Assembly (NCBI GenBank): GCA_051892935.1
Contig: JBJFGS010000037.1
Span: forward strand, 1-38,724
DNA length: 38,724 nt
Direction of reading: 5' to 3'
Origin: Candidatus Coprovivens sp.
Lineage (GTDB): Bacteria > Bacillota_I > Bacilli_A > RF39 > UBA660
The stretch's first letter is position 1; each line of letters begins with the position of its first letter. Both the position numbers and the translations under genes were made by a program. The notes below the pieces were generated by a model that was not told the origin of the DNA, ran no database searches, and saw only the letters and a list, made by a program, of their open reading frames with translations. Positions 3,869 to 26,449 of this stretch are shown in pieces.

Positions 3869-3884
3869 TTTTACTTCCTCCTAC

Positions 3885-5320: not shown

Positions 5321-5337
5321 ATTCTTTTTTCCTTTCA

Positions 5338-5376
5338 CACTTAAATTATAACACATTTAAGTGCATTTGAAAATAT
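5338..5376 (-). promoter_or_regulatory. abiE promoter (extended -10 TGnTATAAT) overlapped by a 9-bp inverted repeat, probable AbiEi operator
   Basis: CACTTAAAT (5338-5346) / ATTTAAGTG (5355-5363) flank the -10; TTTTCA lies 17 bp upstream on the minus strand. Confidence 0.65.
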
Positions 5377-8021: not shown

Positions 8022-8024
8022 ATC

Positions 8025-8059
8025 AAAAAAATAGAACACGTTTTTACACGCATTCTATT
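8025..8059 (-). terminator. Intrinsic terminator between immunity gene 1 and the orphan module
   Basis: Minus strand AATAGAATGCGT-loop-ACGTGTTCTATT followed by a T run. Confidence 0.75.
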
Positions 8060-8091: not shown

Positions 8092-8769
8092 CTATTCATC
8101 ACCAACATATGTAAGTGTATCTCTATGTCTTTTTGTGTCTGATTTCTTTACAGGATTTTTTTGTATACTTGCCAAGTATTCTTCAGTCATCAATCTAGCA
8201 TTTCTATGAATAAAATTCTGTTTAGCAGAAAACTCATAGTCAAATGCCGGACTTTTTTTAAGATTAAATGCTTCGTAACTTGTAATCATCGAATTAATAA
8301 ATCTTTCTTTTGATAAAAATCCTCTTAAAATATTTAAATAATTTTCAGGAATAAATTCATTTTCTGGAGGAATTAAATCAAAATTTCCCAAATAAATCAA
8401 TTCTTCACAAAAATCTTTTGTTTTTCTTGGAGATAATTCAACTAATTCTATAGTATATATAAATATCATCTTAAATTTGTTCATATACTTTTCTAATTCT
8501 TTTACTTTTTCTGGAGAAATAAAACTACTCCATTCTTCATACCAAAAAAAGAAGGGTTTAACATATTCTAAGGCATTAATAGTTTCTTCATTTATTTGTT
8601 CAGGTAAAAAATTTGCAATTTTAATCCTTACAACATCATGATAATCTCCATTTTCTACTTTTTTTTCGTCAATCTTATTAATTATTAAATATTTACCATC
8701 ATAATTTTTATTCTCAAAAATAATTTTTAAAGCATAAGTATCTCCATTATTCATTTTTAGATGTTTCAA
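8092..8769 (-). CDS. Putative immunity protein for the GIY-YIG RHS toxin
   Basis: Overlaps the toxin 3' end; AGGAGG 8 nt before the TTG start; call is positional only. Confidence 0.65.
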   Translation of the reverse strand: MKHLKMNNGDTYALKIIFENKNYDGKYLIINKIDEKKVENGDYHDVVRIKIANFLPEQINEETINALEYVKPFFFWYEEWSSFISPEKVKELEKYMNKFKMIFIYTIELVELSPRKTKDFCEELIYLGNFDLIPPENEFIPENYLNILRGFLSKERFINSMITSYEAFNLKKSPAFDYEFSAKQNFIHRNARLMTEEYLASIQKNPVKKSDTKRHRDTLTYVGDE

Positions 8770-11700
8770 TTGGCCATCCTCCTACATAATATTCTTCATA
8801 ATAAATATTCCATGAAGCTAACATATATTCATCATATCTTTTATTCTTGATTCCAATTCCATTAATTTGATTGTTCAATGGATTCGATTTATTCAATGTG
8901 CTATATTCTATTATCAATCGTTGTTCTAAACCTCTAGCTTCTTCATATGTCAAGCAAGTTTGCAAACCTTTATCCATAACAAGAGAACTTCTTTTAGATG
9001 CTAAATGTTGACTTTCTCTCAATTCTAAATTTGTTGTTCTACCAACATACATTGTTTTTTTAGTTACTGGTTCTTTCAACGTATAAACATAATGGCATTG
9101 GGAATTCGAAGATTTCTTCTTTTTATTAGCTTTTTTAGTTTTAGATGCAGCATATACTACTGCACCAGTTATAGCAACTGCTGCCAAATATGGTGCTGCT
9201 GCACTTAATGCAGAACTCGCTGCTGTTGCAAGACTACTTCCATAAGCCTTAGCTGCACCGATTCCAGTAGCCACCACATCTCTTACTTTTCCCCAATCGA
9301 GCCAATCTAATGCACCAGCGTTATGTCCATTTGGATCAACACACATAATGTAATTATTACTAACATATTGAAAAAGATTTCCGGAGACAACATCTTTATT
9401 AGCTAACAATATTGAATCTCCATTAATAAATCTTCCCCATTCTGGGTTGTAGTATCTACTATTTAGATAGTATAACTTGGTTTCTTCATCATAGTAATAA
9501 CTTCTATAACGGAATGGATTTATTGTACCTAGATTAATTCCACTATTATCCGTGATATTAGAGATTGCTCCCCAACTATCGTATTCATATGTTACTATTT
9601 CTTCATAGTTAGAGTTTATAATACCAATTATATCTCCAAATACATTTTTATGATAGTAATAAGTATTTCCATTATAAACGAATCCTAATAGTTCATCTCC
9701 GTTATATAAATAGTATAACATAGTATTATTTCTATCTTCAAATACTATTTTATTACCTTCTAAATAATATTTTGTTTCAATGTTATTAACTACTTTTGAT
9801 GTACGAATACCATTTAAATTGTATTTATAACTTATATTATTTGATGATTCTTGATATGAAGATAGTTCTCTACCATTCATCCAAGTTAAAGTTTTGTTTC
9901 CTATACTTAATGGGTTTCCAATGTTATCGTATGTAATTGTTTCATTATTAAATTTAGTTAATAAATCTTGCCAATTACTATTCTCATATGAATATGTATT
10001 TTCTGATAATAATGTAGTCGTATTATACGTATAAACTTTCTTACTTAGTATATTTCCATAATTATCATATAAATATTCAATTGTTTGATTATTAACTAAA
10101 TTATGTTCTTTAATTAACTGAGAATGTTCATCATAAAAGTATTTATTAACAACAGAATTATCTTTTTTAACTTCTGTTATATTACCTAACTTATCATACT
10201 TATATGAATAATTTATACCATTATCATTTACATTATTTAATACTGCAGAAGTTTTCTTACCATTAGTTATATAACTATAAGTTGTTTTATAATTATTATT
10301 AATATTACTTTCTATAAGTCTTCCTAAGTTATCATAAATATAATTGAAATTGTTATTTAAGATATTTAAGTTGGTTAACGATGATTCTTGATTATAAGAA
10401 TAATTATATAAATATGAATAATTACCTAATTCTTCTTTTTTATCGGTAACATTATTTTCACTATCATAGTTATATGATGATTTATAATTATTGAATTTAT
10501 ATTTGCTAATTCTATTAGCAAAATCATATTCATAATTATAATTATCATTATTAGAAGTTAATTTAACTATTCTGCCTAGATTATCGTAATAATTTTTATA
10601 TACATCATTTGTTTTGGTAATTGTCTTGATTCTATCAAATTCATCATATGTATAGTTTACTTCATGATTATTACCGTATTTTATTTTAGTTAAATTACCA
10701 TTATTATTTTCGTAAAAATTTTCTACTAAGTTAGTATTATTTATATTAACTTTTTTATTATTATTAAAGTTATCATATTCAAAGGTATAGTTTTTAGTAC
10801 CATGAGTTATTTTAGATAAGTTATTATTACTATACTCATATGATACGTTATGTTCTCCCTTACTAATATTACTAACTCTAAACTTACTATCGTAAGTATA
10901 GTTGGTAGTATTATCTAGTGGATCAGTAATACTATTTGTTACTTCATTAGTACTATTTATATCGTAAGTAGTAACATTACCTAAACTATCTTTTACTGAT
11001 TTTATAAATCTACCATCATTAGTATATTCAGCACTACTTTCAATAAATAAACTGTTTTCCATTCTTTCAAATAAGAAGTGTTGTGATTCGTTGTTTTCAT
11101 TGTATGTAGTTAAAGATAATGTATTGTCTTCATTTACTGTTACTGATAGTTCATTTGATTTTATGGAGTATGTCTTATCAGAATGTTCGATAAGTTCAAA
11201 TATGTTATTGTTGTCTCCATATTCTATTTTTAAAACTCCACCATTGTCTTTTAAATAATAGTTTTTTAAAACTGTATATTGGAGTTTTATTTTAGAATCT
11301 GGTTGTTTAATAACATTGAACTTATCATGTGAACATTCACATTGTCTTACCATTAAATTTTTATCTGGTTTAATATATAGATAACAATCTGTACCTTTAG
11401 CTCTTATATAATAAGTAGTATCTATTATTTCATCAAATGCTTGAGTATTATTTATAATTGTTTTAATAGGATTATTATTACTATCATAATCAATACTATT
11501 TGTAATACCTGTAGGAGATATAGCTCTTATTAATCTATCAGTTACATTTTCATCATATTCATATTTAAACTTTTTACCTAATGGTGAAATAGCTTCTATT
11601 AATTGATTATTACCATCATAATTAAATGTAGATGTTTCTCTGGATAAATCAGTACTTGAAACTAAGTTTCCTTCATCATCATAGACATAAGAATAACTTT

Positions 11701-14404
11701 CTAAATCTTTGAATATAGATATATTTGTAATATAACAATCTCTACAACTAAATAAATCATTAATATTCAAAGAGATACTATTAAAATCGTATTTAGCTAC
11801 GTATTTTTTAGAAAAATAATGCCAATCTTTATTATATTCTGTTAAATAATCATCTTCTCCATAGCCTTCCCATTCACCATCAACATAATCAAAATATATA
11901 TATCCTGCTATATTGGCTGGTTCTTCTATACTATCTACAGGAGGAATTATTTTTGGTCCTTCATTTTTATACCAGAATGATAATTCAAAGACATCTCCTG
12001 CTTTACCATTTACATTGAAATGTTTAGCTATAGTAGTTTGAATCAATGGATTATTATTTAACTTCAGAGCTTTTATATTATCTATTGTGACAACTTCAGC
12101 TCTAGGTGTTGTTTCTTCAGATTCATAGTTCCATTGTCTTCCTGTTCTTTTATAAGAAGAAATTTCATATCCCGTTGTTCCATTGTTAAAGTTACTATTA
12201 CTTATCATGTTATAGTAATTAGCAACTTCTCCCTCTTCTAACTGAATGGCATCTATCCATATATTACCAATACCTAATGGGGTAATCTTAACTACTAAAT
12301 TAGAAGTTGCTGATTCAGGATAATTAATAGTAACATCATATCTACTATATTTATTATTTATATCATTTATAATAGTTTTTTCTTCTACTGAATCATATGA
12401 TAAAGATATTTCTAAAGGAATATCATTCTTAATATAAGTACTAAATGTATAATATTTTTCTTTGTCTACTTGTTTAGATAAACTAATATAACTATTTAAT
12501 GCTGTATTTGAAATTTTTAATGACTTTAGTCCGTAATGTCCTTCATTTAATACAGATGAAGTAATATTACTATTTGAAGATGTAAATGGATTAGTTCTAT
12601 CTTCAAAAGATGAATTGTCTATTAAGTTATTAACATGCTTAACTAAACTTCCATCTAAAGTTACTTTATTTACCGATGATGTACCTACTTCCCCATAAAC
12701 AGAAGTCTTTCCGTAAGCATTAGTTAGATCATTATTACTATCTATATTAGTAATTACTTCTGTATTAGCATTATTATTAAATACATAAGTATTAACATGT
12801 CCTTTTCTATCTTTAATACTAGTAGATTTTAAGTTATAAGTAAATTCTAAGTAATTACCTTCACTATTATCTTTACCATATTCTATAACTTTAGATACTC
12901 TATAAGTCTTATTATTTATATACTCATACTTAGTATATAAACCATTAGAATTAATAATCTTCTCTATTAAGTTATTACTATTATAAGTAATTGTTGTTAT
13001 ATCTTCTAAATCTTCTATACTAGTTACTAAATTATTAGTTATATTAACTATTGTAGTTTTATAAGGACTTATAAAACTAATTTTATTAGCTTCATAAGTA
13101 ATATTTATTTCATCATTAGATGCATCTATTACTTTGTTTATTCTATTATTAGTATCATATATAATTTGAATTGTTTTATCTGAAGTATCTTTTATTTCTT
13201 CTAAATAATAAGTACCACTATGATTAACATATTTATTAGTATTTTTATCTTTATCAGTCATTATATAGTTATTATCAATTAATTCTACTTTTAATGATAA
13301 ACCATCTTCATCATAATAAATATTATCAGTAGATTTATAAAAATAATGAATAGTTCCATCTTCATCTGTATATTCAAGTACTTCTATATCATCAATTGTA
13401 ACTTCTTTTATAGTTTGTATTAAATTAGGTTTTATTCCTAACCCATAACCATAATTACTACCTAGTACTTTATCTGCAGTATTATATACAAGATATAATC
13501 CAACTGGTAATGGTCCACCTATTGTATTTGCAACATCAAAGGTGCTGGTTAAATTACCATTATAATTATTAATATGACTAGAACCTAATTCATGACTTTG
13601 TGATGTATAAGTTAAATAACTTTCTAATCCATTTAAGTTTTTATAATTAATTACTAATCCAGGTTGCGGATTCCCTGTTTCTGTCTCAGCATTCTTAGTA
13701 TAATATTCACCTATTTTTACATTTGCATTATAGATTTCATCAACAGCTTTTAACATTAAACCATAATTAGGTTCATTATTATACCATCTCTGTACTAAGT
13801 CTGTAACATCTACTTTAGATACTTTACTATTTATTGTAAGTATATCTCCTGAAATTGTCCCAGATGATCTTGTACTATGAAAGTAATTTTCTATATTAGT
13901 ATTATATTTATTATTCATAGATGACCAAGTAGTACTATTTTCAGACCAATCTTGTGTTAGTTGATGTATTGAAATTAAGGTATTTGAATCACTTTCATTA
14001 TAGTTTTCATCATAATAACCAATAAGGTTTAATGTAGCATCAACTATTGTATAACTTGAAGGAATAGTTGGTAAATCGAATTTTAAGAGTGCACGATGTA
14101 TTACATCTGTTCCATTAATTCTTTCTACTCCTATTTTTATTTTATCTTCTTCTCCAGTATTAGTACCATTTGATGATATATAGGTATCTGTTATATAAAA
14201 AGGATTATTATTTCCTGTTATAGCACCCATACCGGCAGTATTATTTGATTCTCCCGGTGTTAAAGTCGGTTCATCAGATAAGAGCATTATTTGATTATTA
14301 TTAATTATTTCATCATATATTTCTATCTGAATAGTCCCATCTTTTTTTAAATATGTTTTTGAATTCGGAGTTTGATATTCTGTTAATTCTATTCGCTTGT
14401 CCAT
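8747..14404 (-). CDS. RHS/YD-repeat polymorphic toxin 1 (DNRLRE/CBM96-like, two CBM-like domains, beta-trefoil-like insert, RHS core, GIY-YIG nuclease CT)
   Basis: DTYISS...RALLKFDLP...VTDLVQRWY; NLIDNSSFE...IQLEEG; YD repeats; RHS core; VDPNG; CT HYVY...YVGRT...R...ARGLEQ...N; no signal peptide. Confidence 0.9.
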   Translation of the reverse strand: MDKRIELTEYQTPNSKTYLKKDGTIQIEIYDEIINNNQIMLLSDEPTLTPGESNNTAGMGAITGNNNPFYITDTYISSNGTNTGEEDKIKIGVERINGTDVIHRALLKFDLPTIPSSYTIVDATLNLIGYYDENYNESDSNTLISIHQLTQDWSENSTTWSSMNNKYNTNIENYFHSTRSSGTISGDILTINSKVSKVDVTDLVQRWYNNEPNYGLMLKAVDEIYNANVKIGEYYTKNAETETGNPQPGLVINYKNLNGLESYLTYTSQSHELGSSHINNYNGNLTSTFDVANTIGGPLPVGLYLVYNTADKVLGSNYGYGLGIKPNLIQTIKEVTIDDIEVLEYTDEDGTIHYFYKSTDNIYYDEDGLSLKVELIDNNYIMTDKDKNTNKYVNHSGTYYLEEIKDTSDKTIQIIYDTNNRINKVIDASNDEINITYEANKISFISPYKTTIVNITNNLVTSIEDLEDITTITYNSNNLIEKIINSNGLYTKYEYINNKTYRVSKVIEYGKDNSEGNYLEFTYNLKSTSIKDRKGHVNTYVFNNNANTEVITNIDSNNDLTNAYGKTSVYGEVGTSSVNKVTLDGSLVKHVNNLIDNSSFEDRTNPFTSSNSNITSSVLNEGHYGLKSLKISNTALNSYISLSKQVDKEKYYTFSTYIKNDIPLEISLSYDSVEEKTIINDINNKYSRYDVTINYPESATSNLVVKITPLGIGNIWIDAIQLEEGEVANYYNMISNSNFNNGTTGYEISSYKRTGRQWNYESEETTPRAEVVTIDNIKALKLNNNPLIQTTIAKHFNVNGKAGDVFELSFWYKNEGPKIIPPVDSIEEPANIAGYIYFDYVDGEWEGYGEDDYLTEYNKDWHYFSKKYVAKYDFNSISLNINDLFSCRDCYITNISIFKDLESYSYVYDDEGNLVSSTDLSRETSTFNYDGNNQLIEAISPLGKKFKYEYDENVTDRLIRAISPTGITNSIDYDSNNNPIKTIINNTQAFDEIIDTTYYIRAKGTDCYLYIKPDKNLMVRQCECSHDKFNVIKQPDSKIKLQYTVLKNYYLKDNGGVLKIEYGDNNNIFELIEHSDKTYSIKSNELSVTVNEDNTLSLTTYNENNESQHFLFERMENSLFIESSAEYTNDGRFIKSVKDSLGNVTTYDINSTNEVTNSITDPLDNTTNYTYDSKFRVSNISKGEHNVSYEYSNNNLSKITHGTKNYTFEYDNFNNNKKVNINNTNLVENFYENNNGNLTKIKYGNNHEVNYTYDEFDRIKTITKTNDVYKNYYDNLGRIVKLTSNNDNYNYEYDFANRISKYKFNNYKSSYNYDSENNVTDKKEELGNYSYLYNYSYNQESSLTNLNILNNNFNYIYDNLGRLIESNINNNYKTTYSYITNGKKTSAVLNNVNDNGINYSYKYDKLGNITEVKKDNSVVNKYFYDEHSQLIKEHNLVNNQTIEYLYDNYGNILSKKVYTYNTTTLLSENTYSYENSNWQDLLTKFNNETITYDNIGNPLSIGNKTLTWMNGRELSSYQESSNNISYKYNLNGIRTSKVVNNIETKYYLEGNKIVFEDRNNTMLYYLYNGDELLGFVYNGNTYYYHKNVFGDIIGIINSNYEEIVTYEYDSWGAISNITDNSGINLGTINPFRYRSYYYDEETKLYYLNSRYYNPEWGRFINGDSILLANKDVVSGNLFQYVSNNYIMCVDPNGHNAGALDWLDWGKVRDVVATGIGAAKAYGSSLATAASSALSAAAPYLAAVAITGAVVYAASKTKKANKKKKSSNSQCHYVYTLKEPVTKKTMYVGRTTNLELRESQHLASKRSSLVMDKGLQTCLTYEEARGLEQRLIIEYSTLNKSNPLNNQINGIGIKNKRYDEYMLASWNIYYEEYYVGGWPIETSKNE
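9416..9928. repeat. RHS core direct repeat, copy 2
   Basis: Matches 7509-8021. Confidence 0.95.
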
Positions 14405-14412
14405 AGAATCAC

Positions 14413-15099
14413 CTAACTAACTCTCTTATAAATATTAACCGCTAAATATGGTGGTAGTGATGATGCATTTCCTGTATTAGGAGGTGTAGTTGAACCGGTA
14501 TTACTTGGAGTAGTAGAACCAGTATTACCATATACTTGAATTCCTTCAGTACGAGTTGAAGATGTTGATACACCTGCTCCTGTATCTTTTTTTCTTTCAT
14601 TTCCTGTAAACTCTATACCTATTTTAGTTTTATAATAAAAGCCATTAGTTCCAGCAAACCGAGCTGCTGTGTATAAACTTCCATATCCATGAGAATGAGC
14701 AGCAGATGTGTGACTATGTGCTGATGATGGATGGTTATGAGTCAATGCACCACCTATTGAATTTAAAGAATAATTATTACTAGATGCTAATAAGAATCTA
14801 TCTTCTATTTTTTCCCATGTACCAGTAAATAATGTACCTGGATTTACATCAGACGTAGTAATGTAAATTGAACCTACTGGATATATTCTATTAAATATTG
14901 CTTCAAAACTGAGTGTGTTATTATTCGCATCACTAATGTTTAAGCTATTTACTGTTAAGTTTCCATTTGTATCTAAACTAAATTTGTTATTTGTAGAAGT
15001 TATACAGTTCGCTTCTATATTATTAGCTACTATATCTAATCCTTCTGTTGTTTCTGTAAAGTATTGATCATATCCTGTTGTATTTGTTTCTTCATTCAT
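14413..15099 (-). CDS. Phage baseplate/tail-fibre tip-like protein (gp10 C-terminal-like), copy 1
   Basis: IYPVGSIYIT...NPGTLFTGTWEKIEDRFLL, three HxH motifs (HNH, HSH, HSH), terminal LPPYLAVNIYKR. Confidence 0.75.
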   Translation of the reverse strand: MNEETNTTGYDQYFTETTEGLDIVANNIEANCITSTNNKFSLDTNGNLTVNSLNISDANNNTLSFEAIFNRIYPVGSIYITTSDVNPGTLFTGTWEKIEDRFLLASSNNYSLNSIGGALTHNHPSSAHSHTSAAHSHGYGSLYTAARFAGTNGFYYKTKIGIEFTGNERKKDTGAGVSTSSTRTEGIQVYGNTGSTTPSNTGSTTPPNTGNASSLPPYLAVNIYKRVS

Positions 15100-15280
15100 A
15101 TTATTTTACCTCTTTCTTTTTCTCTATAATTTATGTTTAAATTAATTTGTTCTTTTTTACTTTCACCTACTTCCACAAGATACTTTCATATCTCTAAGTT
15201 GAGAATAATGGCGAATTGTAAAAAAAGCTATCGCTTATTTAGCGAAAAAGATTCGCTCAAATGGCGAATCTCTTTTAAAT
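15085..15280 (-). repeat. Cassette upstream repeat A, copy 1 (leader with tandem palindromes)
   Basis: Near-identical to 23358-23552; contains TCGC-N7-GCGA at 15231-15245 and 15253-15267, plus an AGAGG RBS. Confidence 0.9.
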
Positions 15281-15349
15281 ATTAATCTATTTGGGCGATA
15301 ATTTATAATAACAAGTGCAACGCTTAATTAATTCATATAAAAAAAATCG

Positions 15350-15511
15350 CTTACTGCGCCTTCATAAAAAGCACAATAAGCGACATTTAGTATTACATGA
15401 TTATTAATAAATATTTTCAAATGTATATTATTAATGACAAGACCTCTTTCTGTCGTGCTATACAAAACACTATCTTGTCTTAACATTAATATACATTTTT
15501 AATTTTTTTAT
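15350..15511 (-). repeat. Non-coding repeat B, copy 2, ending in a terminator hairpin + T run on the minus strand
   Basis: Similar to 5827-5986; minus strand TCGCTTATTGTGCTT-loop-AAGGCGCAGTAAGCGA-T8. Confidence 0.85.
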
Positions 15512-15513
15512 GT

Positions 15514-15538
15514 TGTCTACCATTTGGGGTTCACATCA
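15514..15538. mobile_element. Isolated IS3-family (IS150/IS861-like) terminal inverted repeat
   Basis: Reverse complement TGATGTGAACCCCAAATGGTAGACA resembles IS861-type ends as I recall them (TGAACTGCACCCCAAAAGTTAGACA); no transposase in the window. Confidence 0.55.
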
Positions 15539-15583
15539 AAATTAGCGATTTTTTTACAATACATTGAAAAAATATCATTTTTT

Positions 15584-16402
15584 TTACATCATATTATTCT
15601 TTTTAAAGAAGTTTCTTAATTTCTTTTTACTAGTTGATGGAATATATCTTTCCATTAAATATTTCGATTTTGAAGTATTATAGGTATATATTATATAGTC
15701 ATCATCAAATATAATATTATTTGAACCAATCAGTTCTTCTAATTCGCTAATTTTTTTTTCAGTTAAACACTCTTTTTTAAATGCATTATATAAAAATATA
15801 TCAATAATTTTGTTCTTCCATTCAAACAAATGATTAATAGATTGATCACTAACTTTCTTTTCTTCAAAAGTACTAAAAATATGATCATAACCATTAATTA
15901 GGTATCTATTAGAACTACCACTATAATAATGCATTATAGAAGTGTTTATCAAAAAACCATTTTTAGTAATCAAATCTAAAATTTTTTTATAGTCCGTTAA
16001 CTCTATACATTTGTTTTTTAAAAGTTTTTCTTGTACGACAATTTCCCAACTTAAGTATTCCTGATTTATAGGATAGTTTATTTCTATTTCGAAGTCAGAA
16101 TATTCAGAGTTATTTTGAGGTTTCTGTTCATAAATTAAACTCGGAGCTCCAAATTCATTAGGGTGTTTTTTCCCTCGCATTTTTGATTCTATGTTCACAT
16201 TATAAAATTCTTTTTTATTGGTAAACATTTTACCTATATCCTTAAAATCATAATCTGGATGAAGAAGCATATAACCAATTCTATCATAATTACAATTTAA
16301 TATCTTACATATTTCGTCAACAATTTGTTCTGTTATTTTTTTTTGGTCAATATTCCGATTGTAATCTTCAACGAATATCTTTATTATATAATATTTTTTC
16401 AT
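15584..16402 (-). CDS. Putative immunity protein for RHS toxin 2
   Basis: Starts 12 nt after the toxin stop with an AGAGGA RBS; call is positional only. Confidence 0.65.
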   Translation of the reverse strand: MKKYYIIKIFVEDYNRNIDQKKITEQIVDEICKILNCNYDRIGYMLLHPDYDFKDIGKMFTNKKEFYNVNIESKMRGKKHPNEFGAPSLIYEQKPQNNSEYSDFEIEINYPINQEYLSWEIVVQEKLLKNKCIELTDYKKILDLITKNGFLINTSIMHYYSGSSNRYLINGYDHIFSTFEEKKVSDQSINHLFEWKNKIIDIFLYNAFKKECLTEKKISELEELIGSNNIIFDDDYIIYTYNTSKSKYLMERYIPSTSKKKLRNFFKKNNMM

Positions 16403-16414
16403 ATATAAATCCTC

Positions 16415-19400
16415 TTATTTCCATTTAAATAATTTAGATATTTTTCTAGCAATATCTATGACTTGCTTTTTGCAATTTGGATTACCTGCTGCTATAATTT
16501 CATTTAATTTTTTAGTCATTTGCTTAGCTGTCTGGGATTTACTAACTACTTCTACTAACTTGTTTTTACCAAATCTTGCTTTTCCTATAACATCAGGGCG
16601 TTTAGTTCCTACTAATCCTGCAGCACTTAATGGTTTGTCCAAATATATTTCTTTATATTTTATAGGATTTAATGACATTGAACCTGCTGAAACATTTGAT
16701 GCAAATCTGTGAAGAGCCGTTCCTGTTGCTTGCGCATCTCCTACTACCTTAACTACTCCTGTTTTTATGCCTATAGATGACACAACTGCTCCTGTAACTC
16801 CTCCTGCAAATGATTCTATCGCTGCTCCACTAAGTACTCCATCTACAACATTTTCTCCTTTTTTAGAAGCATTTACTCCACCTGCTACTCCCCCAATAAC
16901 TGCTCCTGCAGATGCACCAATAAATGCTGCTCCTGCTACTACTCCTGCTGGGCCTGTTAGAGTTGCGGCAGCTACTGCAGCTACTCCAATACATGTAGCT
17001 ACTGCAGCTACTTTTACTACTTTTTTCACAATTCTAGATAGTTTCGGTAATTTTGGCCAGTCACCGTCTTCATCAACAAGTGTAATTGGATTATTAAATG
17101 CATATTGATAATTATTGTAACTTAATACTTTTTCTTTAGCGCCGACGTTTTCATCAGCAGTTAAAAATCTTCCTAATTTTGGGCTATAATATCTGGAGTT
17201 TAAATAATATAAATCAGTTTCATTATCATAGTAATACGATCTATATCTAAATGGATTCATGGTTCCTAAGTTAACGTTACTATTATCCACCATTTTTGTT
17301 ATATTTCCCCAAGAGTCGTATTCGTACGTTACTATTTCATTATAATTTGTATCTATTATTCCGACAATGTCTCCTAATATATTTTTATGATAATAATAAA
17401 TATTATTATTTAATGTTAATCCTAATAAATCTCCTTCTAAATCATATATATATATATAACATAGTTCCATCTCTATTTTCAAATATTATCAAATCATCTT
17501 CTAGATAATATTTTGTTTCTATGTTATTTACTTTTTTAGAAGTTCTAATTCCTTTAACATCATAATTAAATTCTATTATGTTATTATTATCAATGTATGA
17601 TGATAACTCATGACCATTAATCCATGTTAAACTTTTATTTCCAATGGTCAATGGATTTCCAATTGAGTCGTAAGTTATGTTATCATCATTATATTTCATT
17701 AATAAATCGTTCAAATTATTATTATATTCATATTTATCCTCTTTTATTAAAAGTTCATCATTAATGTTATAAACTTTCTTTGATAACAAATTTCCGTAAT
17801 AATCATATGAATAACTTTTAATTTGATTATTAATATAATCTTCTTCTTTTATTAATTGAGAATTATTATCATAATAATACTTATTCGTTAACTCCCCATT
17901 TTTTCTAATTTCTGTAATATTATCAAGTTTATCATATTCATATGTATATTCTATTCCGTTATCTTCAATTTTATCTATAGTTGTAGAGGTTTTATTTCCT
18001 TTCGTAATATAATGATACTTTGTTCTTAAGTTGTTATTTATGTTTTTTTCTGAAAGTCTACCTGGACTGTCATATAAATAGTTGAATGAATTACTTAAAA
18101 TACTGATTTTAGTCAAAGTTAAATCATCATTATAATCATAATCATAAGTATAATTTCTTAGTCCTAACTCTTGAATTTTTTTAATAATAATATTATCTTT
18201 TCTATAATCATATTTTGATATAAATTCATTAAAACTATACTTACTTATTCTTTGTGCAAAATCATATTCATAATTGTAAATATCGTTATTGGATGTTGAT
18301 TTTACTATTCTACTTAAATTATCGTAGAAATTAGTAAATGTATTGTTTCCTTTAATTATTTTTTTTACTCTGTCAAACTCATCATAAGTGTAACTGATAA
18401 TATTATTATTACCATATGTTATTTTTTTTAAATTGCCATTATTTGATTCAAATTCTTTATTTATAATAATATTATTATTTAACTTTGTTATATTATTGTT
18501 ATTAAACTCATCATATTCGAAAGTATAAGACTTATTTCCATGGCTAATTGTTGAAAGATTATTGTCATCATCATATTCATAAGTAACTATGTGATTTCCT
18601 TGTTCTACTTTTGTCATTTGTAAATTATCATCGTACATATACGTAGTTATGTCACCATTGGGATTACTCAAACTTTGGATTAATCCGTTTACCGGATTTA
18701 TATCATAAATTATTTCATTATCCAATGAGTCTTTAACACTTTTTATAAATTTACCATCATTTGTATAAGTCGCATAGCTTTCTATATACATTTTATCGTT
18801 GGATTGTTCAAAGAAGAACTCTTGGCGATAATCTTCACTATTGTAGTCCGATAAGATAATATTAAAAGTATCTGTTAAAGTTAATACTTTTTGTTGCTCA
18901 TCTTCACTTTGGGCTAATGCTATGGAATAACTATTATTTAAATTTGATATTAATTCAAATTCATTATTATTATCGCCATACTGAAGTTTTACTTCGCCAT
19001 TATGAACTTTAACAAAGTAATTATTTAAAATTGCATGTTTAATTTTTACTTTGTTTTCATCGTCTTTTATAATGTAAAATTTATCATAAGAACACTCTGA
19101 TTCTTTCATTCTAATGGTTTTATCTGTATTTATAAAGAAATACTTATTTGTTCCTTTAGCCCTTATCAAATATTTTACCTCATTATTTATTTCTGCCAAT
19201 GTTCTTTTATTTGTTACTTTTGTTGATAAAACATTTCCATTATTATCATATTTTATAGAACTCGTTACTCCGGAAGGTGAAAAGGCTCCAATAATTCTAT
19301 CATTTACGTTATTATCATATTCAAAAGTATAATTATTTCCAAGAGGATCTGTCATTCCAATTATTTGATTACTATTATCGTATTTTAAACTGCTTTTCTC

Positions 19401-22400
19401 TTTATTCAAATCAACACTAGAAATAAGATTCCCGTTTTCATCATAATCATATGAATATGCTTCTAAATCTTTGAATAGAGAAAAATTCGTATAATAACAA
19501 TCGTTCGCTCCACCAAAATTATTGATATTTATCTCTAAATAATCATAATCCCATTCTGCTTGAAAATTTTCCGAAAAAAACTGCCAATTATCTGATCCAA
19601 CATTTAAGTATTTTGCAGGAACACACGCTCCAAATTCCATACCATCATTATATCCAAAGAAAATTGTTGCCCAACAACCTGGCATAAGACCTTCTCCACC
19701 ACTCGGATAAATTCCAGAATTTTTGTACCAAAATGATAGATTATATGTATCACCAGCTTTTCCTTTTACGTTAAACCTTTTATCGACTGTTATGCTACCA
19801 ATTGGTTCTGAATGAACCTTCAGTGCTTTTACTCCACAAGACAATTCTTTAATTTCGGCGTATTCTGTTGTCGACCCCGAATCTATAGTCCAGCCACTGG
19901 TTCCTTTTTTAAAACTACTATTATCTACCATATTATAATAATTAGCTACATCTCCTTCTTCCAACTGGATATCATCAAGATATAAACTTATAGGACTTTC
20001 ATCAACATTTTGAATTGTTAATTTAAGGTTATCTGTTGCTTCTGCAATATATTCTATCGTAACTGAGTATCTAACGAAATCATTTGTCAGTTTAGTAATA
20101 TGGGTTACGGCTCTTGTATCATCGTATGATAAAATAAAATCTAAACATAAATCTTCGCTACTTTCAACTAGAGATGTTCCTCTTATATATCCACTGAATG
20201 TATAAGTTTTACCTTTTGGAACTACAAATTCTTTATATATATATCCTCCACCTCTAGGTATCCCAATTTCTAGAGATTTTAAACCACTTCTTGATTCTGC
20301 AGTACTTGTTGTGTTTGTAGAATTAATATCTCCATTTGTAAATCTCATGGATTCCTCGCCTTCAAAAGAAGAATCGTCAATTAGATTATCTATATAGTTA
20401 ATTAAAGAATTGTCAGATATTATTTTATTAGAAGTACCTTCATCTTCATTACCAAATACATATGATTTTCCATAAGCTTGGTTTAAATTATCATTTTCAT
20501 CGATGCTAGTTATTCCAATAAGGTTCCCATAACTATTAAAAATATATGTATTTACATGTCCTTCATTATCAACAATTTTTGTATCTTCTAAGTTATAGCT
20601 AAATACTAAATAATTACCTTCATTTCCTAATTTGCTTATTTCAGAAACTTTTTTTATTCTGAAAGAGATTTGATTAATATATTCGTATTTTATTGCTAGT
20701 CCATTCGAATTAACAATTTTATCTATTAGATTATTATCATTATATATGATATTTTCTGTTATTCCTAGCGAACTAATTTTTGTAATTAAATTATTCTCTA
20801 AATGAACTATTGTTTCTAGATGTGGACTTACAAAAGTTATTTTATTATCGTTATAAGTAACGATTATTTCTTGATTAAGCCCATCAATAACTTTTGTAAT
20901 CCTATTTTGAGTATCATATGTTATTGTTATTTTTTTACCATCAACATTTTGTATTTCCTCTAAATAATATATTTCTCCGTCATTGTGTTTCACAAATTTA
21001 CTTATATTTTTGGCTTTATCAGTCATTACATAATGCTCATCTTTAAATTCAACTGATAAATCTAGTCCATCTTCATCAAAATATTCATTGGAATATGAAA
21101 TTTCCTCATTTTCAGAGTCATTTATTTTTCTATAGAAATAATGTATTGTACCATCTTCATCTGTATATTTTAGTAATTCTTGTTCTTCTATTATTTCTTT
21201 TACTAAAGTTTGTATTAAGCTTGGCTTAATACCTAATCCGTATCCATAGTCATTGTTGAGCTCGACATCGGTTGTATTGTAAACTAAATATAAATTTGCA
21301 GGTAGCCCTCCACCTACTGTATTGGCTACATCATATGTAATCGTAAGATTTCCTGTATAATTATTAATACTTGCTTCACCAAAATTATGTTCTTGAGTTG
21401 TATATGACAAATACGATTCGATACCATTAAAATTTTTATACGTGATGGAAATCAGTGGTTTTGAATAACTAGTATCGTTATAATCTTTCGAAACATAAAA
21501 TGCAGGTCTACTATTATCCGTTACCTCTTCATTATATTCTTTTAGCATTATTCCATAGTTTGGCTCTCCATTATACCATTTTTGAACTAAACTAGTTATA
21601 TTAAATATATCTTTATAATCATCTCCAGGTTCTTGATGAAACGAATCCATTCTATTAGCATAGCAATAATCTTCTATATTACTTGAGTAATTGTTACTCA
21701 TATTTTCCCATTTGGCGCTGCTTTCGTTCCAATTTTGAGTCAGTTTGTGTACTGAAATCATCGGAACTTTATTTTGGTATGCTAAACCAAATTCATCTGG
21801 ATAACAAGACATAACGACACTAGCGTCAACCACCTTGTATCCAGCAGGTATTTTAGGTAATTCAAATTTTAATAATCCTCTGTATATCACATTACTTTTA
21901 TCGGTACCTACGTATAAATATGGCTGATTATATGTAGTACTATTTTCATCACCATCAAAAATATATGTGTCTATTACACTAGAACTTGATTGTACATTTG
22001 TAATTGTTGGATCAATTACTACAGGATAACTTCTACTCTTATCATTTAACCATTCTTTATCTATATCAATTATTAATTCGTATCCATAAATTGTTTTTTC
22101 TAGTTCATATTTTATAGATTCAGAATAAACATTTTTGCTATCAAACATATATGGTTTTTCTATTTTGAAGCACTCTATTTCGTTGTCCATAAAACTTATT
22201 GTATTATCTTCGTTTAAAACCAATCTCAAATTGGTGTTTATATTATAATTAAATCTTTTTTTTGAAGTATTATTTTTTAAAATAATAGATTCTTTCAATT
22301 GATTAGATAGAACTTGATATTTTAGATCTGTATTTATATATATTTCTTCATAAATTATCGAATTAGATGAGTTATTTTGTAATAATTTTTCTTGATTGCA

Positions 22401-22697
22401 ATTACCAATTACAGTGTTATCCGTTTCTTTTGGAATCAATGATAACTTTTTATTTTTATAAGAGATATTAATTTGCAGTGGTTGATTGTTGTCATTAAAT
22501 TCTATTTTAAAGTCATTATCTTTATTTTTATAACCTCTAGGTGTTTTCTCTAAAGAATTATTAATTTCCTTATATTCTCCTTTATCTAAATAATAGATTG
22601 GTTCTTTAAATAATTCAATTTGTATGGTACCATCATGATTTAGAAAACGCTTACTATTAGCAGTTCTAAATTCTTTTAATTCTTTTCTTTTTTTCAT
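16415..22697 (-). pseudogene. RHS/YD-repeat polymorphic toxin 2 (about 2094 aa if joined), split by a frameshift in a (TA)n tract; PD-(D/E)xK-like nuclease CT
   Basis: ORF 17442-22697 is a collinear paralogue of toxin 1; ORF 16415-17482 carries the RHS core, VDEDG, a hydrophobic segment and RPDV...VEVVSKSQ; junction in (AT)7A at 17444-17458. Confidence 0.88.
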
Positions 22698-22709
22698 ATT
22701 TTTACTCCG

Positions 22710-23372
22710 TTAACTAACGCGTTTCCACATATTAACTGGTAAATAAGGAGGAAGTATTGTTGTCTCACTTGTTTGAGGTACTGCTGTCATTGCCCCTGTT
22801 TTACCGCCTAATGCTGTTCCATAAGTACGAGTTTCAGATTTTGAAGCTACTGCTCCACTTATCGTTTTTCTTAAGTTTTGACTATAGCTTACTCCACTCA
22901 CTTCTCTTGTATTAATATATTGTGCAGAGAAATCTACACATGCAAATCCTGAATCTCCTAAATTATGTGTATGTGCTCCTACAGTATGCTTATGTTTAGT
23001 ATCTCCTCCTGGACTTCCTAAAACATAGTTAGAGTTAGCTCCTATTAAAAATTTTCCTTCTATTTTTTCCCATGTTCCACCAAATAACGTTGCTGGATTG
23101 ACTTCTCCTACATTCATATAAATTGAGCCAATTGGATATATTTGATCGAAGTTAATTGTTTGATTACTACTTGTTTCACTTACTGTAGTAATACTATTTA
23201 CAATTAGATTACCTTCACTATCCAAACTAAATTTATCATTATTGGATGTTATACATCCTACGTTAATATTGTTAAATTCTCCGTTTAATCCGTTATCAGT
23301 TGGTGTAAAATATTCGTCATAATAATTTGTAGTAGTTTCTACTGTTTCTGTATTTGTTGTTTCTTCATTCAT
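22710..23372 (-). CDS. Phage baseplate/tail-fibre tip-like protein (gp10 C-terminal-like), copy 2
   Basis: IYPIGSIYMN...NPATLFGGTWEKIEGKFLIG, HKH and HTH motifs, LPPYLPVNMWKR; paralogue of 14413-15099. Confidence 0.75.
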   Translation of the reverse strand: MNEETTNTETVETTTNYYDEYFTPTDNGLNGEFNNINVGCITSNNDKFSLDSEGNLIVNSITTVSETSSNQTINFDQIYPIGSIYMNVGEVNPATLFGGTWEKIEGKFLIGANSNYVLGSPGGDTKHKHTVGAHTHNLGDSGFACVDFSAQYINTREVSGVSYSQNLRKTISGAVASKSETRTYGTALGGKTGAMTAVPQTSETTILPPYLPVNMWKRVS

Positions 23373-23552
23373 ATTATTTTACCTCTTTCTTTTTTTATAA
23401 TTTATGTTTAAATTAGTTTATTCTTTTTTACCTTCACCTACTTCCACAAGATACTTTTCATATCTCTAAGTTGAGAATAATGGCGAATTGTAAAAAAAAC
23501 TATCGCTTATTTGGCGAAAAAGATTCGCTCGAATGGCGAATCTCTTTTAAAT
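23358..23552 (-). repeat. Cassette upstream repeat A, copy 2
   Basis: Matches 15085-15280; palindromes at 23503-23517 and 23525-23539. Confidence 0.9.
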
Positions 23553-23558
23553 TCTAAG

Positions 23559-24512
23559 TTATTTTAAATATTTAGAAATTACCCAAGCTTCTGAATCTGG
23601 TGATATTTTTGACCAACCAAATCTTATACCATATACTTTTACCTTTGTTCCATTTTTCAAACACGCTATTGGTTTGTTACTTTTTTTTGTATTACGTTTT
23701 TTTCTAACATTCAGTCCTTCTTCGTCTGCTCCAGTTATAGTCTTCAGTTTAGGCTGTTTTTTTGATAAATAAGTCGAATAAACATATTTACAATCTCCTA
23801 AATAAGCTCTTCCATCTAAAATTTTTATAACTTTAACTACTGACCCAATAGGTAATAATTCCACAACTTCATTATTTTTAAGTGACCTAACATTTAATCC
23901 CTCGTAATCGACATTGTCTACATACATAATCGTTCTATTTGTAGCAGTTTCCACTTCATCTAATTCCTTGTCAGAATAATCTGGTCTACCATATCCATCT
24001 ATCGATGAAGCATTTAATCGATATTTTTTTGTTCGAACACATCCGCCATTGGATACAACACCTTTTGCACTACTGGTGTTACCTTCAATAGTGTATACAT
24101 ACGTGGCATCTATCTTATATACGAGTCCTGTGTGACAAATTTTATTGTTTTTCTTAAAAAATATTTGATCACCGATTTCTGGACTCTTATGGTATTGATT
24201 TTTTTGGGCATAAAAACTTTTAGAAAAACTTACTCCGGCACCTGTTGATTTATCTGGTTGACATAGTAATTCTTATGCTCTTTTTACTCCAAAAGTTTGA
24301 ACGAAACACCAATCAACAAAAACATCACACCATGAAAAGCTTTGCTTTCTACCATTATAGAAATTCTTTACTTTATCTAAATCTCTAGCATATTTTGTAA
24401 AATTATTTTTACCAGGATTTGCTGTTTTATCATCTAAATAATCGTTACTATTCTTTTCCAAGTACCCTTCTTCATCAAGTGCAATTTCGATTAACTTTTT
24501 TACTGTACTCAT
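23559..24512 (-). pseudogene. CHAP + two SH3b-like domain endolysin with one in-frame TAA
   Basis: The 79-aa and 131-aa ORFs share a frame; reading through TAA 24273-24275 gives WCDVFV...ELLCQP...GDQIFF...HTGLV...TIEGNT...GYGRP, then two LNVR-type repeats (318 codons in total). Confidence 0.85.
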
Positions 24513-24853
24513 TGCTTTTGACCTTCGTCTTTCTTCTTATCCTTTTTTATATTGTTACATGAAGATTCTATCATTACCTCTAATTCTAAATCTGTTATTG
24601 TTATTTTCTTTTCAGTAAGTAAATTTAGTATATTCTCTTTTGCTATATCGTGTTTTTCAATGCTAGATTTATCACTATGTAATTGTTCAACATATTTCAC
24701 TGTATCTTCTATTATATTTTTTTTGATACTATCATTTACATGTTTTTCATATAAGGTCTTTACTCTTAATCCAACATAAGTTAATACTGTTGTTATTATC
24801 GTATATAATAATTCATTTCCGTATGTTGTTATAAATTCTTTTATTAACTCCAT
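24509..24853 (-). CDS. Phage holin, LL-H family
   Basis: Single N-terminal hydrophobic helix, VKYVEQ...EK...IESS pattern, ATGA overlap with the endolysin. Confidence 0.8.
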   Translation of the reverse strand: MELIKEFITTYGNELLYTIITTVLTYVGLRVKTLYEKHVNDSIKKNIIEDTVKYVEQLHSDKSSIEKHDIAKENILNLLTEKKITITDLELEVMIESSCNNIKKDKKKDEGQKQ

Positions 24854-24877: not shown

Positions 24878-25618
24878 TTACCATGTTCCACTCCAAGTTG
24901 CTTCCGCACTTGAAATAGTATCGTATTTATCTACTATGCTAGCTTCTAATTCAAGCTTATCTAAATCCATAACATATTTTTTTGAATTAGCTAACGATAC
25001 GCTACTTGTAGCATGTGCATAATCGCCGTTTATTGTTTGATTTATAATTGTATATTGAGTATTTTTTTCTACATCAAAATAAAAAGTTTGATCTAGTTGA
25101 ACCAAATCTCCAGTTGGAACTTTAAACGATGTTCCTGCACCATTTGTAAAAATTTTAGGATAATTTGTAGTTGTAGTTGTACATCCTCCATTTGAAACAC
25201 AATATGTTTGACTAAAATGAGTATCTCCTTTTACTTTTACTGATGTTTGAAAACCGATTCCTATAATGTCATAACTTCTTACTTTTGGTATATTCTTCCA
25301 GACTAATCTATTTTTATATCGATAGTAATTTCCATTAGCAGTTATTGTTGCAGTCATCTTCTTATAAGTTGTTTCGATAGTTGTTGAGCTATTAGTTCTT
25401 AATAGTACATCGCTGTTATTATATTCTTCTTCTGTTATTTCAGTTGTTGTTGATATAGAGTTGTTATTTAAACTATAAGTGTTAGCTGTTCCTAGAAATG
25501 TTGCTGTTTTGTAATATTTTGTTGTTTCTGCTAAAACTAATTCTGTTTCAGCTTTTGAAATTTTAGGAAATACTAAAATTCCTAGCATCATAAAAAAAAT
25601 AAATAAACTATGTTTCAT
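24878..25618 (-). CDS. Secreted hypothetical protein (Thr/Ser-rich, probably beta-rich)
   Basis: Signal peptide MKHSLFIFFMMLGILVFPKISKA; AAGGAGG RBS. Confidence 0.7.
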   Translation of the reverse strand: MKHSLFIFFMMLGILVFPKISKAETELVLAETTKYYKTATFLGTANTYSLNNNSISTTTEITEEEYNNSDVLLRTNSSTTIETTYKKMTATITANGNYYRYKNRLVWKNIPKVRSYDIIGIGFQTSVKVKGDTHFSQTYCVSNGGCTTTTTNYPKIFTNGAGTSFKVPTGDLVQLDQTFYFDVEKNTQYTIINQTINGDYAHATSSVSLANSKKYVMDLDKLELEASIVDKYDTISSAEATWSGTW

Positions 25619-25642: not shown

Positions 25643-25708
25643 ATTATATGAATGAGTTTGTTTATTATAAATCGCTTATTTGGCGAAAAAAATTCGCTCA
25701 AATAGCGA
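25643..25708 (-). promoter_or_regulatory. Sigma-A-like promoter with tandem TCGC-N7-GCGA palindromes just upstream of the -35
   Basis: Minus strand TTTATA-17 bp-TATAAT; palindromes at 25672-25686 and 25694-25708. Confidence 0.55.
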
Positions 25709-25714
25709 ATTTCT

Positions 25715-26449
25715 TTATTTTACGTGTAAGATATGACTAGTTTTTTCGTTTGTATTTTTATCTGAATACTCAACTTTTATTTTTAATTTATTCTTCATTG
25801 AATATTCTATTTCTTTACTTTCTATAAATATTGATACATTTTTTAGTGCATCACTTAATAAAATTTCTTCCCTATATTCTACACGTCTAGAACTAACTAA
25901 TTTATCTTCATAAAAAATAGATATTTCTATTTTATTTACAATTGGTTCCATAGTTGTTCCTAGTTTCTCGTCTTTATATATGAAGTTATTAAATAAGATT
26001 ATTGTTTCTTTTTGATTGTAAACAACAAAACCATCGAAATCAAAAATTTTATTTGTTAAACTTTGAACATTTTCCGTGTGCCATTCATTGTATTTTATAA
26101 TTCCAAATGTTATTGAAAATATAAATATTAAGGAAGTTATTATAATTGAAGCTATTTTTAAATTCCTCTTTTGAGTTTGTTTTGTATAATATTTTAAACT
26201 TTTCAATGCTATTTCATCTTGAACAAATTCATTGTCTTTATTTTTCTTTCCTTCTAAAAGTTCTGTTACTGTAACTCCTAATATGGTACTTAATTCTTTT
26301 AACACTGTTATGTCTGGTGCATACCTTCCATTTTCCCATTTTGAAATAATTCTATTGTCTATGCTTAGTATTTCACCTAGTTCTTTTTGTGTTAATCCTT
26401 TTTTCTTTCTTAGTTCGGCTATAAATTTTCCAATTGAATCTAATTGCAT
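25715..26449 (-). CDS. XRE-family HTH regulator with one TM helix and a probable extracellular domain
   Basis: IGKFIAELRKKKGLTQKELG...ISKWENG...PD; hydrophobic IASIIITSLIFIFSITFGII. Confidence 0.85.
   Translation of the reverse strand: MQLDSIGKFIAELRKKKGLTQKELGEILSIDNRIISKWENGRYAPDITVLKELSTILGVTVTELLEGKKNKDNEFVQDEIALKSLKYYTKQTQKRNLKIASIIITSLIFIFSITFGIIKYNEWHTENVQSLTNKIFDFDGFVVYNQKETIILFNNFIYKDEKLGTTMEPIVNKIEISIFYEDKLVSSRRVEYREEILLSDALKNVSIFIESKEIEYSMKNKLKIKVEYSDKNTNEKTSHILHVK

Follow-up and report, generated by a model that had tools for sequence, protein, structure and literature searches.

The analysed stretch of DNA (the window) is a 38,724-nucleotide contig of about 25% G+C from Candidatus Coprovivens sp. 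(JBJFGS010000037.1), contig C37 of a 1.8-Mb genome assembled in 53 contigs and 92% complete. Two loci, both on the minus strand, each carry a gene for a small protein with a predicted phage fibre-type head, directly upstream of a gene for a large RHS protein. We call the small proteins partners and their first ~50 residues the N-module. The two units consist of the following features.

14413..15099, minus strand: partner 1 (P0001), 228 amino acids; N-module at about residues 8-56, Gp10_C head at 68-227, three HxH motifs.
8747..14404, minus strand: RHS1, 1885 amino acids, complete; N-terminal motif, DNRLRE at 72-250, YD repeats, Rhs-associated core at 1608-1694, GIY-YIG C-terminal toxin.
8092..8769, minus strand: open reading frame (ORF) of 225 amino acids with a 23-nucleotide overlap with the RHS1 end; putative immunity protein by position only.
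22710..23372, minus strand: partner 2 (P0002), 220 amino acids; N-module at residues 15-64, Gp10_C head at 75-219, two HxH motifs.
17442..22697, minus strand: N-terminal part of RHS2, 1751 amino acids; N-terminal motif, beta-supersandwich at 44-240, DNRLRE at 243-419, YD repeats.
17445..17458, minus strand: (TA)7 run at which the RHS2 frame is lost; the RHS2 stop codon follows directly.
16415..17482, minus strand: continuation of RHS2 in a different frame, 355 amino acids; Rhs-associated core at 55-140, C-terminal toxin of no known family.
15584..16402, minus strand: ORF of 272 amino acids downstream of the RHS2 toxin, no family; putative immunity protein judged by position alone.

The P0001 stop codon lies 8 nucleotides before the RHS1 ATG (14404) and the P0002 stop codon 12 nucleotides before the RHS2 ATG (22697), in agreement with an earlier note on this DNA that had described 228- and 220-amino-acid paralogues at these distances. 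BLASTP aligned the two partners with 43% identity over 221 columns (E = 1e-54). The alignment contains all the shared elements that had been listed: the N-terminal YDxYFTxTxxGL and CITSxNxKFSLDxxGNLxVNS, then IYPxGSIY and LPPYL. The count of three versus two HxH motifs was also correct, as these start at residues 121, 128, and 135 of P0001 and at residues 127 and 134 of P0002.

Judged from its domains, RHS1 is a polymorphic toxin, with YD/RHS repeats, an RHS-associated core, a GIY-YIG tip, and a putative immunity gene assigned by position only. The earlier note had assigned a partner to each full RHS toxin. This description fits RHS1, which is complete, but not RHS2, which is broken by a frameshift at the (TA)7 run, with its core and toxin in a second frame past the run. 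Among related contigs from sequencing runs, none of which shared more than 0.29 of the sampled words, one metagenome contig differs in length inside this run. Thus, the RHS2 break may reflect a strain difference, an assembly error, or phase variation.

Both partners match the Pfam family Gp10_C (PF21939, cut-off 27 bits) over nearly the whole profile: P0001 with 43.9 bits (E = 5.8e-11, profile 1-139) and P0002 with 55.3 bits (E = 1.8e-14, profile 2-139). No other Pfam family exceeded its cut-off in either protein, and both match PHROG tail-protein families. When two sets of longer partners and relatives were scanned with Pfam-A, PF21939 was found in 9 of 9 and 4 of 6; it was missed in P0375 and P0378, in which the head is split by a large insertion or lacks its end. 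A family profile made from an alignment of 33 members (A1) had as its best solved match, at nearly full length, 7z47_I, the 267-amino-acid chain I of a phage SU10 entry (E = 4.4e-6, profile 7-213 against chain 37-267). The profile also matched the C-terminal domain of T4 gp10 (2fkk_A, E = 7.9e-6; 2fl8_A, E = 9.1e-6). Residues 75-220 also have counterparts in phage genomes: the "putative antireceptor" of L. delbrueckii phages LL-Ku, Ld3, Ld17, and Ld25A aligns to them with 35-37% identity, and the look-alikes of the partner in the ESM Atlas are viral Gp10_C and tail-collar clusters.

Together, the Pfam, PHROG, solved-structure, and antireceptor matches indicate that the homology to phage fibre heads proposed in the earlier note is real: by sequence, the partners are small proteins homologous to phage fibre and baseplate head domains. 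Of the label "fibre/spike-like", the first half stands (Gp10_C, PHROG, 7z47, and 2fkk) and the second does not, since Gp10_C is a head of the receptor-binding type and no spike. Support from structure came mostly through the profile matches to 7z47_I and 2fkk. The AlphaFold model of the P0002 monomer was mediocre (pLDDT, the predicted local distance difference test, of 64), and Foldseek with this model gave gp10 chains as its top four rows at E values of 1.8e-3 to 1.4e-2, with no match at E ≤ 0.001. A low-confidence monomer fold is expected if the head is an intertwined trimer. A puncturing role like that of VgrG/PAAR, also put forward in the note, found no support, as Gp10_C was the only family above the Pfam cut-off and neither the partners (E ≤ 1) nor the RHS proteins (E ≤ 0.001) had a Pfam hit to VgrG or PAAR; type VI secretion system (T6SS) genes elsewhere in the genome were not searched.

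By homology, the partner probably forms a trimer. T4 gp10 is a trimer, and T4 gp12 binds metal through HxH motifs. The partners resemble these proteins in their sequence family, with matches above the Pfam cut-off, and in having HxH motifs. However, T4 gp10 is a 600-amino-acid baseplate protein that ends in this domain, while the partners are free-standing proteins of ~220 amino acids with an N-module of their own, no baseplate around them, and a toxin gene adjoining. A second model is gp16, the short tail fibre of SU10, which from its length and name is presumably chain I of 7z47. The SU10 paper describes gp16 as a trimer that carries two presumed iron-binding His pairs and uses its N-terminal residues to clamp one loop of one nozzle protein (PMC9509320). 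Like the partner, gp16 is a small fibre protein, and it provides a working model for 3:1 docking on RHS; it is nonetheless a virion part of a podophage with a Gram-negative host, and the N-terminal parts are unlike beyond the profile alignment. The L. delbrueckii antireceptors (the LL-H Gp71 family) match the partner heads with their C-terminal ends, but they have ~650 amino acids, lie in tail modules, and lack the N-module. For LL-H Gp71, host-range mutations have been placed in the C-terminal part, with lipoteichoic acid as the receptor (PMC3870949).

We determined how widely the gene pair is conserved by scanning relatives, one genome per species, with tblastn (E ≤ 1e-3), and examining the best 80 loci among 385 relatives. 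All 80 belong to uncultured gut Bacilli, or to bins labelled as such; in the closest (L005, Candidatus Coprovivens excrementavium), the partner is 90% identical to P0001. A same-strand RHS-like ORF lies downstream of the partner in 75 of the 80 loci, at a distance of -41 to +132 nucleotides in 58 and of 378-1086 nucleotides in 17. The close spacing is that of translationally coupled genes. Inspection of 10 of the 17 wide-gap loci revealed a coiled-coil ORF in nine and a second partner-like copy in two. Five loci lack an RHS gene: in L003 and L004 the contig ends less than 500 nucleotides from the partner, in L075 the partner is truncated to 105 amino acids, and L059 and L080 carry true orphan partners with no RHS downstream.

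In the reverse test, the first 700 amino acids of RHS2 served as query against 150 other genomes of the same order. This search returned 15 RHS matches in 14 genomes, with a partner directly upstream in 12. Two of the misses (L099 and L100) run off the contig end, leaving 12 of 13 informative matches; the third, L096 in genome G087, is an RHS gene of the same type without an upstream partner. In the source genome itself, RHS1 and RHS2 are the only RHS genes, and P0001 and P0002 the only Gp10_C matches. Thus, the pairing that the earlier note had seen in a single contig recurs in other genomes (75/80 forward, 12/13 informative in reverse), far beyond chance.

These data bear on the possibility that the adjacency is a leftover of a decayed prophage with no present function. 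The broken endolysin gene of the window (described below) and the frameshifted RHS2 would be in keeping with decay. However, both partner genes are intact, and the pairing is kept with open frames in loci only 32-48% identical to the query, across at least 14 genera of the sampled order. We consider this explanation scarcely credible.

Two small ORFs without assigned function accompany some of these pairs. The coiled-coil ORF of the wide-gap loci encodes 65-135 amino acids of no family (for example, L009 8588-8995, L021 8766-9131, and L068 8764-9129) and has a conserved end, GIExKLxYEIxxxGxNVTKAxDKV...STIWKxYYPxxK. A second conserved ORF, of 103-114 amino acids, lies directly upstream of the partner in L015 (7645-7986), L048 (7022-7330), L051 (7648-7980), and L052 (7036-7350); it carries MKYIKIKATKYYSN...PLEIINGxSDExIIP... 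and matches no Pfam or PHROG family.

The N-module, with the consensus FTxxxxxxNLxxNNLxxxCITSKNNKFSLDSEGNLxVNS, distinguishes the RHS-linked proteins from other Gp10_C proteins. Gp10_C is common in the order, occurring in 35 of 151 genomes. At 20 places away from RHS, which had no BLAST match to RHS1 or RHS2, the surroundings resemble prophage tail modules: behind large ORFs come one to eight head-only ORFs of 124-193 amino acids in tandem, and these heads match the family profile only from position ~50-68 on. A profile of the N-module alone found 24 ORF entries in the order sample (150 genomes), which reduce to 13 distinct genes once repeated entries for the same place are merged. Twelve of these genes adjoin an RHS gene and one lies at a contig end, while a further 73 head-bearing ORF entries in the same scan lack the N-module. 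In 50,697 phage records, the N-module had no tblastn match at E ≤ 1. The best 80 IMG/VR loci contain 100 ORFs with the head, only one of which also has the N-module, and this ORF has an RHS fragment behind it; a second ORF shows a partial N-module match and no head. Against 1.84 billion representative proteins, the N-module profile matched only 219 at E ≤ 0.001. The best 150 of these have 45-723 amino acids, with the N-module beginning at about residue 5 in the ~200-amino-acid forms and at about residue 170 in the ~380-amino-acid forms. Thus, the N-module occurs almost only in copies that lie ahead of an RHS gene.

These results also speak to the idea that the partner acts alone, as a released or surface adhesin or as a mask for a phage receptor, and is merely co-regulated with RHS. 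The two orphan partners (L059 and L080) and the nearly identical leaders of the two partner genes (below) would be accommodated by such a role. Set against them are the near-restriction of the N-module to RHS neighbourhoods, the overlap or few-nucleotide spacing of the genes in 58 of 80 loci, and the lack of a signal peptide or anchor in the partner, and an independent role appears quite improbable to us.

Longer forms and arrays were also noted. About 23 of 76 partners (for example, L009 7464-8606) belong to a long class of ~350-430 amino acids with ~170 extra residues of no family before the N-module, and the long partner of L097 has the N-module twice. In sister genomes, prophage tail modules (L130, G045:C36 121-4001; L133, L134, and L135) close with up to eight head-only Gp10_C ORFs (124-193 amino acids) in tandem, resembling a set of alternative fibre tips.

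As the earlier note had stated for the pair in the window, the partners differ in the middle. In alignment A1, the N-module, the head start (IYPxGSIY...GTWE...FL), and the terminal PPYLxVxxWKRVS are conserved and the middle is variable. Over 76 RHS-linked partners, mean identity is 49% in the N-module, 54% in the head start, and 22% in the middle. Exchange of parts is evident in P0004 and P0005, whose N-modules are 90-91% identical to that of P0001 while their middles are 74-75% identical to that of P0002, and in P0026 and P0042, which have a common N-module and unlike middles. P0375 (723 amino acids) and P0378 (445 amino acids) keep the N-module and head start and have hundreds of extra residues in the middle, which Pfam assigned to no family; in P0375, the insertion of ~600 amino acids leaves the C-terminal end of the head in place. 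Tandem partner copies occur in five loci. For 5 of 58 RHS-linked heads, the best non-self match is a phage or prophage head, a descriptive count given the small phage sample and the relatedness of the loci. The middle of the head is hypervariable and mosaic, and its sequence is built like that of a host-range determinant. The number of HxH motifs in the 76 partners ranges from 0 to 5, with at least one in 73; the motif is thus frequent, yet not defining of the family.

In other secretion contexts, RHS toxin genes are as a rule preceded by adaptor genes. By this precedent, the partner could be a chaperone, an assembly factor, or an export adaptor that serves the producer by keeping the RHS N-terminus folded or guiding RHS to a holin lesion, with no part in choosing the target cell. 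The tight coupling of the two genes and the way in which a conserved N-module faces a conserved RHS N-terminus would suit an adaptor as well. A chaperone would not need a hypervariable mosaic middle, tandem alternative copies in five loci, or a ~600-amino-acid insertion, and the known use of the head domain is in virion fibres and antireceptors. We hold the adaptor explanation to be unlikely.

We next turn to the RHS N-terminus. The motif MKxIELxExRxxxxKxFLxxDGTIxxxIY is conserved in 34 of 34 aligned RHS proteins, including those of the RHS1 type, which lack the supersandwich domain. A model of RHS2 residues 1-260 was confident (pLDDT 87), with residues 44-240 forming a galactose-mutarotase-like beta-supersandwich (VIA-align, Z 10-12). 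Foldseek with this model gave weak matches and no phage tail protein among the rows listed, a result that leaves room for one. By sequence comparison, the first 260 residues match phrog_37549, "virion structural protein" (E = 1.5e-14), and the RHS2 N-terminus matches, with 24-26% identity, a protein of Bacillus phages PBC1, Wes44, Carmen17, BCE1, LY1, LY5, and S4-5. In PBC1, this protein is gp18, encoded directly after the tape-measure gene. Gp18 starts with the same N-terminal motif and aligns to RHS2 residues 3-420 (E = 2.7e-15), sharing the supersandwich and the CBM96/DNRLRE-like region. It differs in having 1063 amino acids, CBM96 and Ig domains in Pfam, and, in the same scan, no RHS repeat and no toxin tip. 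The PBC1 receptor-binding protein (RBP), gp22, has a BppU_N domain instead of an N-module and Gp10_C. As judged by these alignments, the RHS N-terminal region has phage tail-tip ancestry, just as the partner has phage RBP ancestry, and by analogy the RHS N-terminus is the candidate docking place for the partner.

This ancestry raises the possibility that the two proteins together form the tip of a phage, or of a particle resembling a phage tail, with RHS as its tail-tip protein and the partner as its RBP, and with the tube, tape measure, and other parts encoded elsewhere or supplied by a helper prophage. Several observations are consistent with a particle: the homology of the N-terminal 400 amino acids of RHS to PBC1 gp18, encoded behind a tape-measure gene; the frequency of Gp10_C heads in prophage tail modules of the same order; and the holin and endolysin genes that adjoin the pair. 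In addition, the Deep-Purple paper on these Bacillus phages describes phages without Dit in which tmp is followed by this protein, a suggested adsorption aid, and in which, as in PBC1, the rbp gene comes after the holin gene (PMC9128512). However, the genome (92% complete) has no match to any of the four families searched, PF10145 (tape measure), PF05709 (Dit), PF05065 (HK97 capsid), and PF04860 (portal). The loci have housekeeping genes such as ileS, ribosomal protein genes, and sporulation genes as neighbours, and the right part of the window contains spore-germination genes, ileS, and other housekeeping genes. Moreover, the N-module is present in only one of the best 80 IMG/VR loci, and PBC1 gp18 has neither an RHS-repeat match nor a toxin tip. 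A particle therefore seems improbable.

The reading that we favour, to which we give about an even chance, makes the partner a targeting subunit of phage origin, probably trimeric, with the RHS N-terminus as its docking site. The partner would trimerize as gp10 and the SU10 short fibre do, and its N-module would be the part that docks on the conserved RHS N-terminus. The complex would leave the producer by lysis or through a holin lesion, with help from the holin and hydrolase in those loci that have them nearby in intact form. The variable head would then attach to a glycopolymer or protein on the surface of a competing bacterium, and this binding would determine the cells that receive the toxin, in RHS1 the GIY-YIG nuclease. 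Since RHS1 has a GIY-YIG toxin and an adjoining putative immunity gene, bacteria are the likely targets.

Several points weigh against a targeting subunit. We infer both the trimer and the binding of partner to RHS from homology and analogy. N-module and RHS N-terminus identities correlate only modestly across loci (r = 0.39), and the loci are not independent. The partners of L059 and L080 are orphans, and L096 has the RHS without the partner. A fused partner-RHS protein was found neither in the best 150 N-module proteins, of which the longest has 723 amino acids, nor in the best 120 of 241 longer relatives in the range 386-2000 amino acids. The RHS proteins have glycan-binding-like domains of their own (DNRLRE and the supersandwich), and residues 784-918 of RHS2 resemble a phage head spike fibre domain weakly, with a score below threshold; strictly speaking, RHS thus does not need a separate subunit for binding. 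Finally, the lysis cassette described below is found in a minority of loci, and the hydrolase in the window carries a stop codon. Complex prediction with three copies of P0001 and RHS1 residues 1-300, using their own alignments, scored 0.00 twice ("no answer") and speaks neither for nor against binding.

If the partner is a targeting subunit, the complex must leave the cell. A Sec-like hydrophobic N-terminus was present in 0 of 76 RHS proteins by a simple hydropathy mark, set by the signal-bearing 246-amino-acid neighbour, rather than by SignalP. By the same test, P0001 and P0002 have no Sec-type start and no anchor, and the hydrophobic starts of four other partners are over-long ORF calls. 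Upstream of P0002, the order is a CHAP-SH3 hydrolase, a Holin_LLH gene, and the signal-bearing protein. The features of this region and the leaders of the partner genes are as follows.

23559..24536, minus strand: cell-wall hydrolase of endolysin type, CHAP and two SH3 domains; in-frame TAA at 24273-24275.
24509..24853, minus strand: holin, Holin_LLH (Pfam), 114 amino acids.
24878..25618, minus strand: 246-amino-acid protein with a signal-peptide-like start and no family, upstream of the holin.
25715..26449, minus strand: HTH_3 regulator (Pfam), 244 amino acids.
15100..15290, minus strand: leader of partner 1; a pair of hairpins, each with a T run behind it, and a further ~110 nucleotides.
23373..23560, minus strand: leader of partner 2; the same element as the leader of partner 1.

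The counterpart of the hydrolase in L005 is intact (317 amino acids), and contigs of two related runs have a sense codon where the window has the TAA at 24273-24275. An alternative genetic code at this position was considered and rejected, as the stop is TAA and the related contigs have a sense codon. A survey of the two ORFs 5′ of the partner in 78 loci (144 proteins) revealed that at least 12 of the 80 loci have a peptidoglycan hydrolase domain upstream. These are CHAP/SH3 in L005, L007, and L014; M23 in L025, L037, L076, and, weakly, L024; GH25 in L039 and L059; M15 in L042 and L049; and a PHROG endolysin in L018. Small ORFs with one or two hydrophobic segments lie directly upstream of the hydrolase in L014, L018, L024, L037, and L076. 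In 6 of 80 loci (L005, L007, L014, L039, L047, and L078), a homologue of the 246-amino-acid protein is encoded on the upstream side of the partner. Possible regulators also recur upstream: a small sigma-70 region-4 protein in eight loci, and HTH_3 genes of 253-277 amino acids, like that at 25715-26449, in a further 4 of 78. These domain matches make release via a domesticated lysis cassette plausible in some members of the family, though not in all.

The ~190-nucleotide leaders of P0001 and P0002 are nearly identical, compared with only 43% identity between the proteins, and this likeness points to shared regulation of the two partner genes. As a DNA pattern, the hairpin pair has a third copy at 25690-25712, ~70 nucleotides upstream of the gene for the 246-amino-acid protein. 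Rfam gave nothing at the gathering score in the window, with only chance-level rows for the leaders. The element could be an attenuator or operator common to the three units.

S. suis WapA and the RHS proteins described here share an RHS shell, DNRLRE, a variable C-terminal toxin with an immunity gene, and orphan modules (PMC12704120). According to the same paper, WapA has a signal peptide and LysM and is exported via Sec, a SecF-like protein, and sortase; the proteins here lack the signal peptide and have a phage-like partner instead. The supersandwich of RHS2 (amino acids 76-233) is 33% identical to the N-terminal part of an S. suis protein encoded by a 9,447-nucleotide gene (L152, OP662532.1 8470-17916; 3,148 amino acids, annotated as "hypothetical protein" in a record filed as phage). 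It is presumably the WapA protein of the S. suis paper, which describes the N-terminal domain of WapA as unknown. Tc toxins (type 10 secretion) and the C. difficile toxins with TcdE/TcdL are likewise large and signal-less, with an RHS-type shell (Tc) or an adjoining holin and endolysin remnant (PMC10847048, PMC12485765). Unlike these, the system here would be aimed by a phage fibre head, with bacteria as its likely targets, and no TcA-like translocator or SpvB domain was among the Pfam hits of the window proteins.

A broader proposal, which we put forward only tentatively and consider on balance unlikely, is that these loci represent a phage-derived module with which Gram-positive gut bacteria deliver toxins without a tail, and in which a trimeric phage RBP is joined to an RHS cocoon that has no export signal. 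The RBP would be carried on an N-terminal region descended from a siphophage tail-tip protein, and a domesticated holin and endolysin would free the complex in a lysing subpopulation. The exchangeable fibre head would find the victim and trade parts with the heads of local phages.

In the literature searched, which did not extend to supplements and subscription journals, we found no description of an RHS toxin paired with a partner of phage-RBP type. Zhang et al. 2012 describe tail-fibre repeats as stalks within toxin polypeptides, with no separate partner gene, and the word "holin" is not found in its first 300,000 of 357,715 characters (PMC3482391). Full-text search for Rhs together with DNRLRE found only the S. 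suis WapA paper (PMC12704120), and the papers naming Gp10_C or PF21939 include none on toxins, judged by their titles. As far as this literature goes, the RHS polymorphic toxin system with a phage-RBP-type partner is a previously undescribed variant.

How large signal-less RHS toxins of Gram-positive bacteria exit and how they choose victims is largely unknown, and the two-gene unit offers a testable answer, with a phage receptor-binding head as the aiming part and a phage lysis cassette as the likely exit. The unit joins RHS toxins, phage host-range proteins, and lysis-based release, which are usually studied separately. Its hosts are uncultured gut Bacilli with small genomes, whose competitive tools are almost unknown, and the N-module provides a simple marker for such systems in metagenomes. 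If the broader proposal of a tail-less delivery module is true, polymorphic toxins would have a new route of aiming and delivery that is independent of T6SS, the type VII secretion system, Sec, and a contractile tail.

Beyond RHS1, the window contains one further RHS element.

6786..8039, minus strand: orphan RHS C-terminal module, 417 amino acids; its first 170 amino acids repeat the RHS1 core region, and the toxin tip differs.

Past this module, positions 1409-5356 of the window carry an AbiEi/AbiEii pair and an N6 DNA methylase fused to a specificity-like region; thus, the RHS island abuts a defence island.

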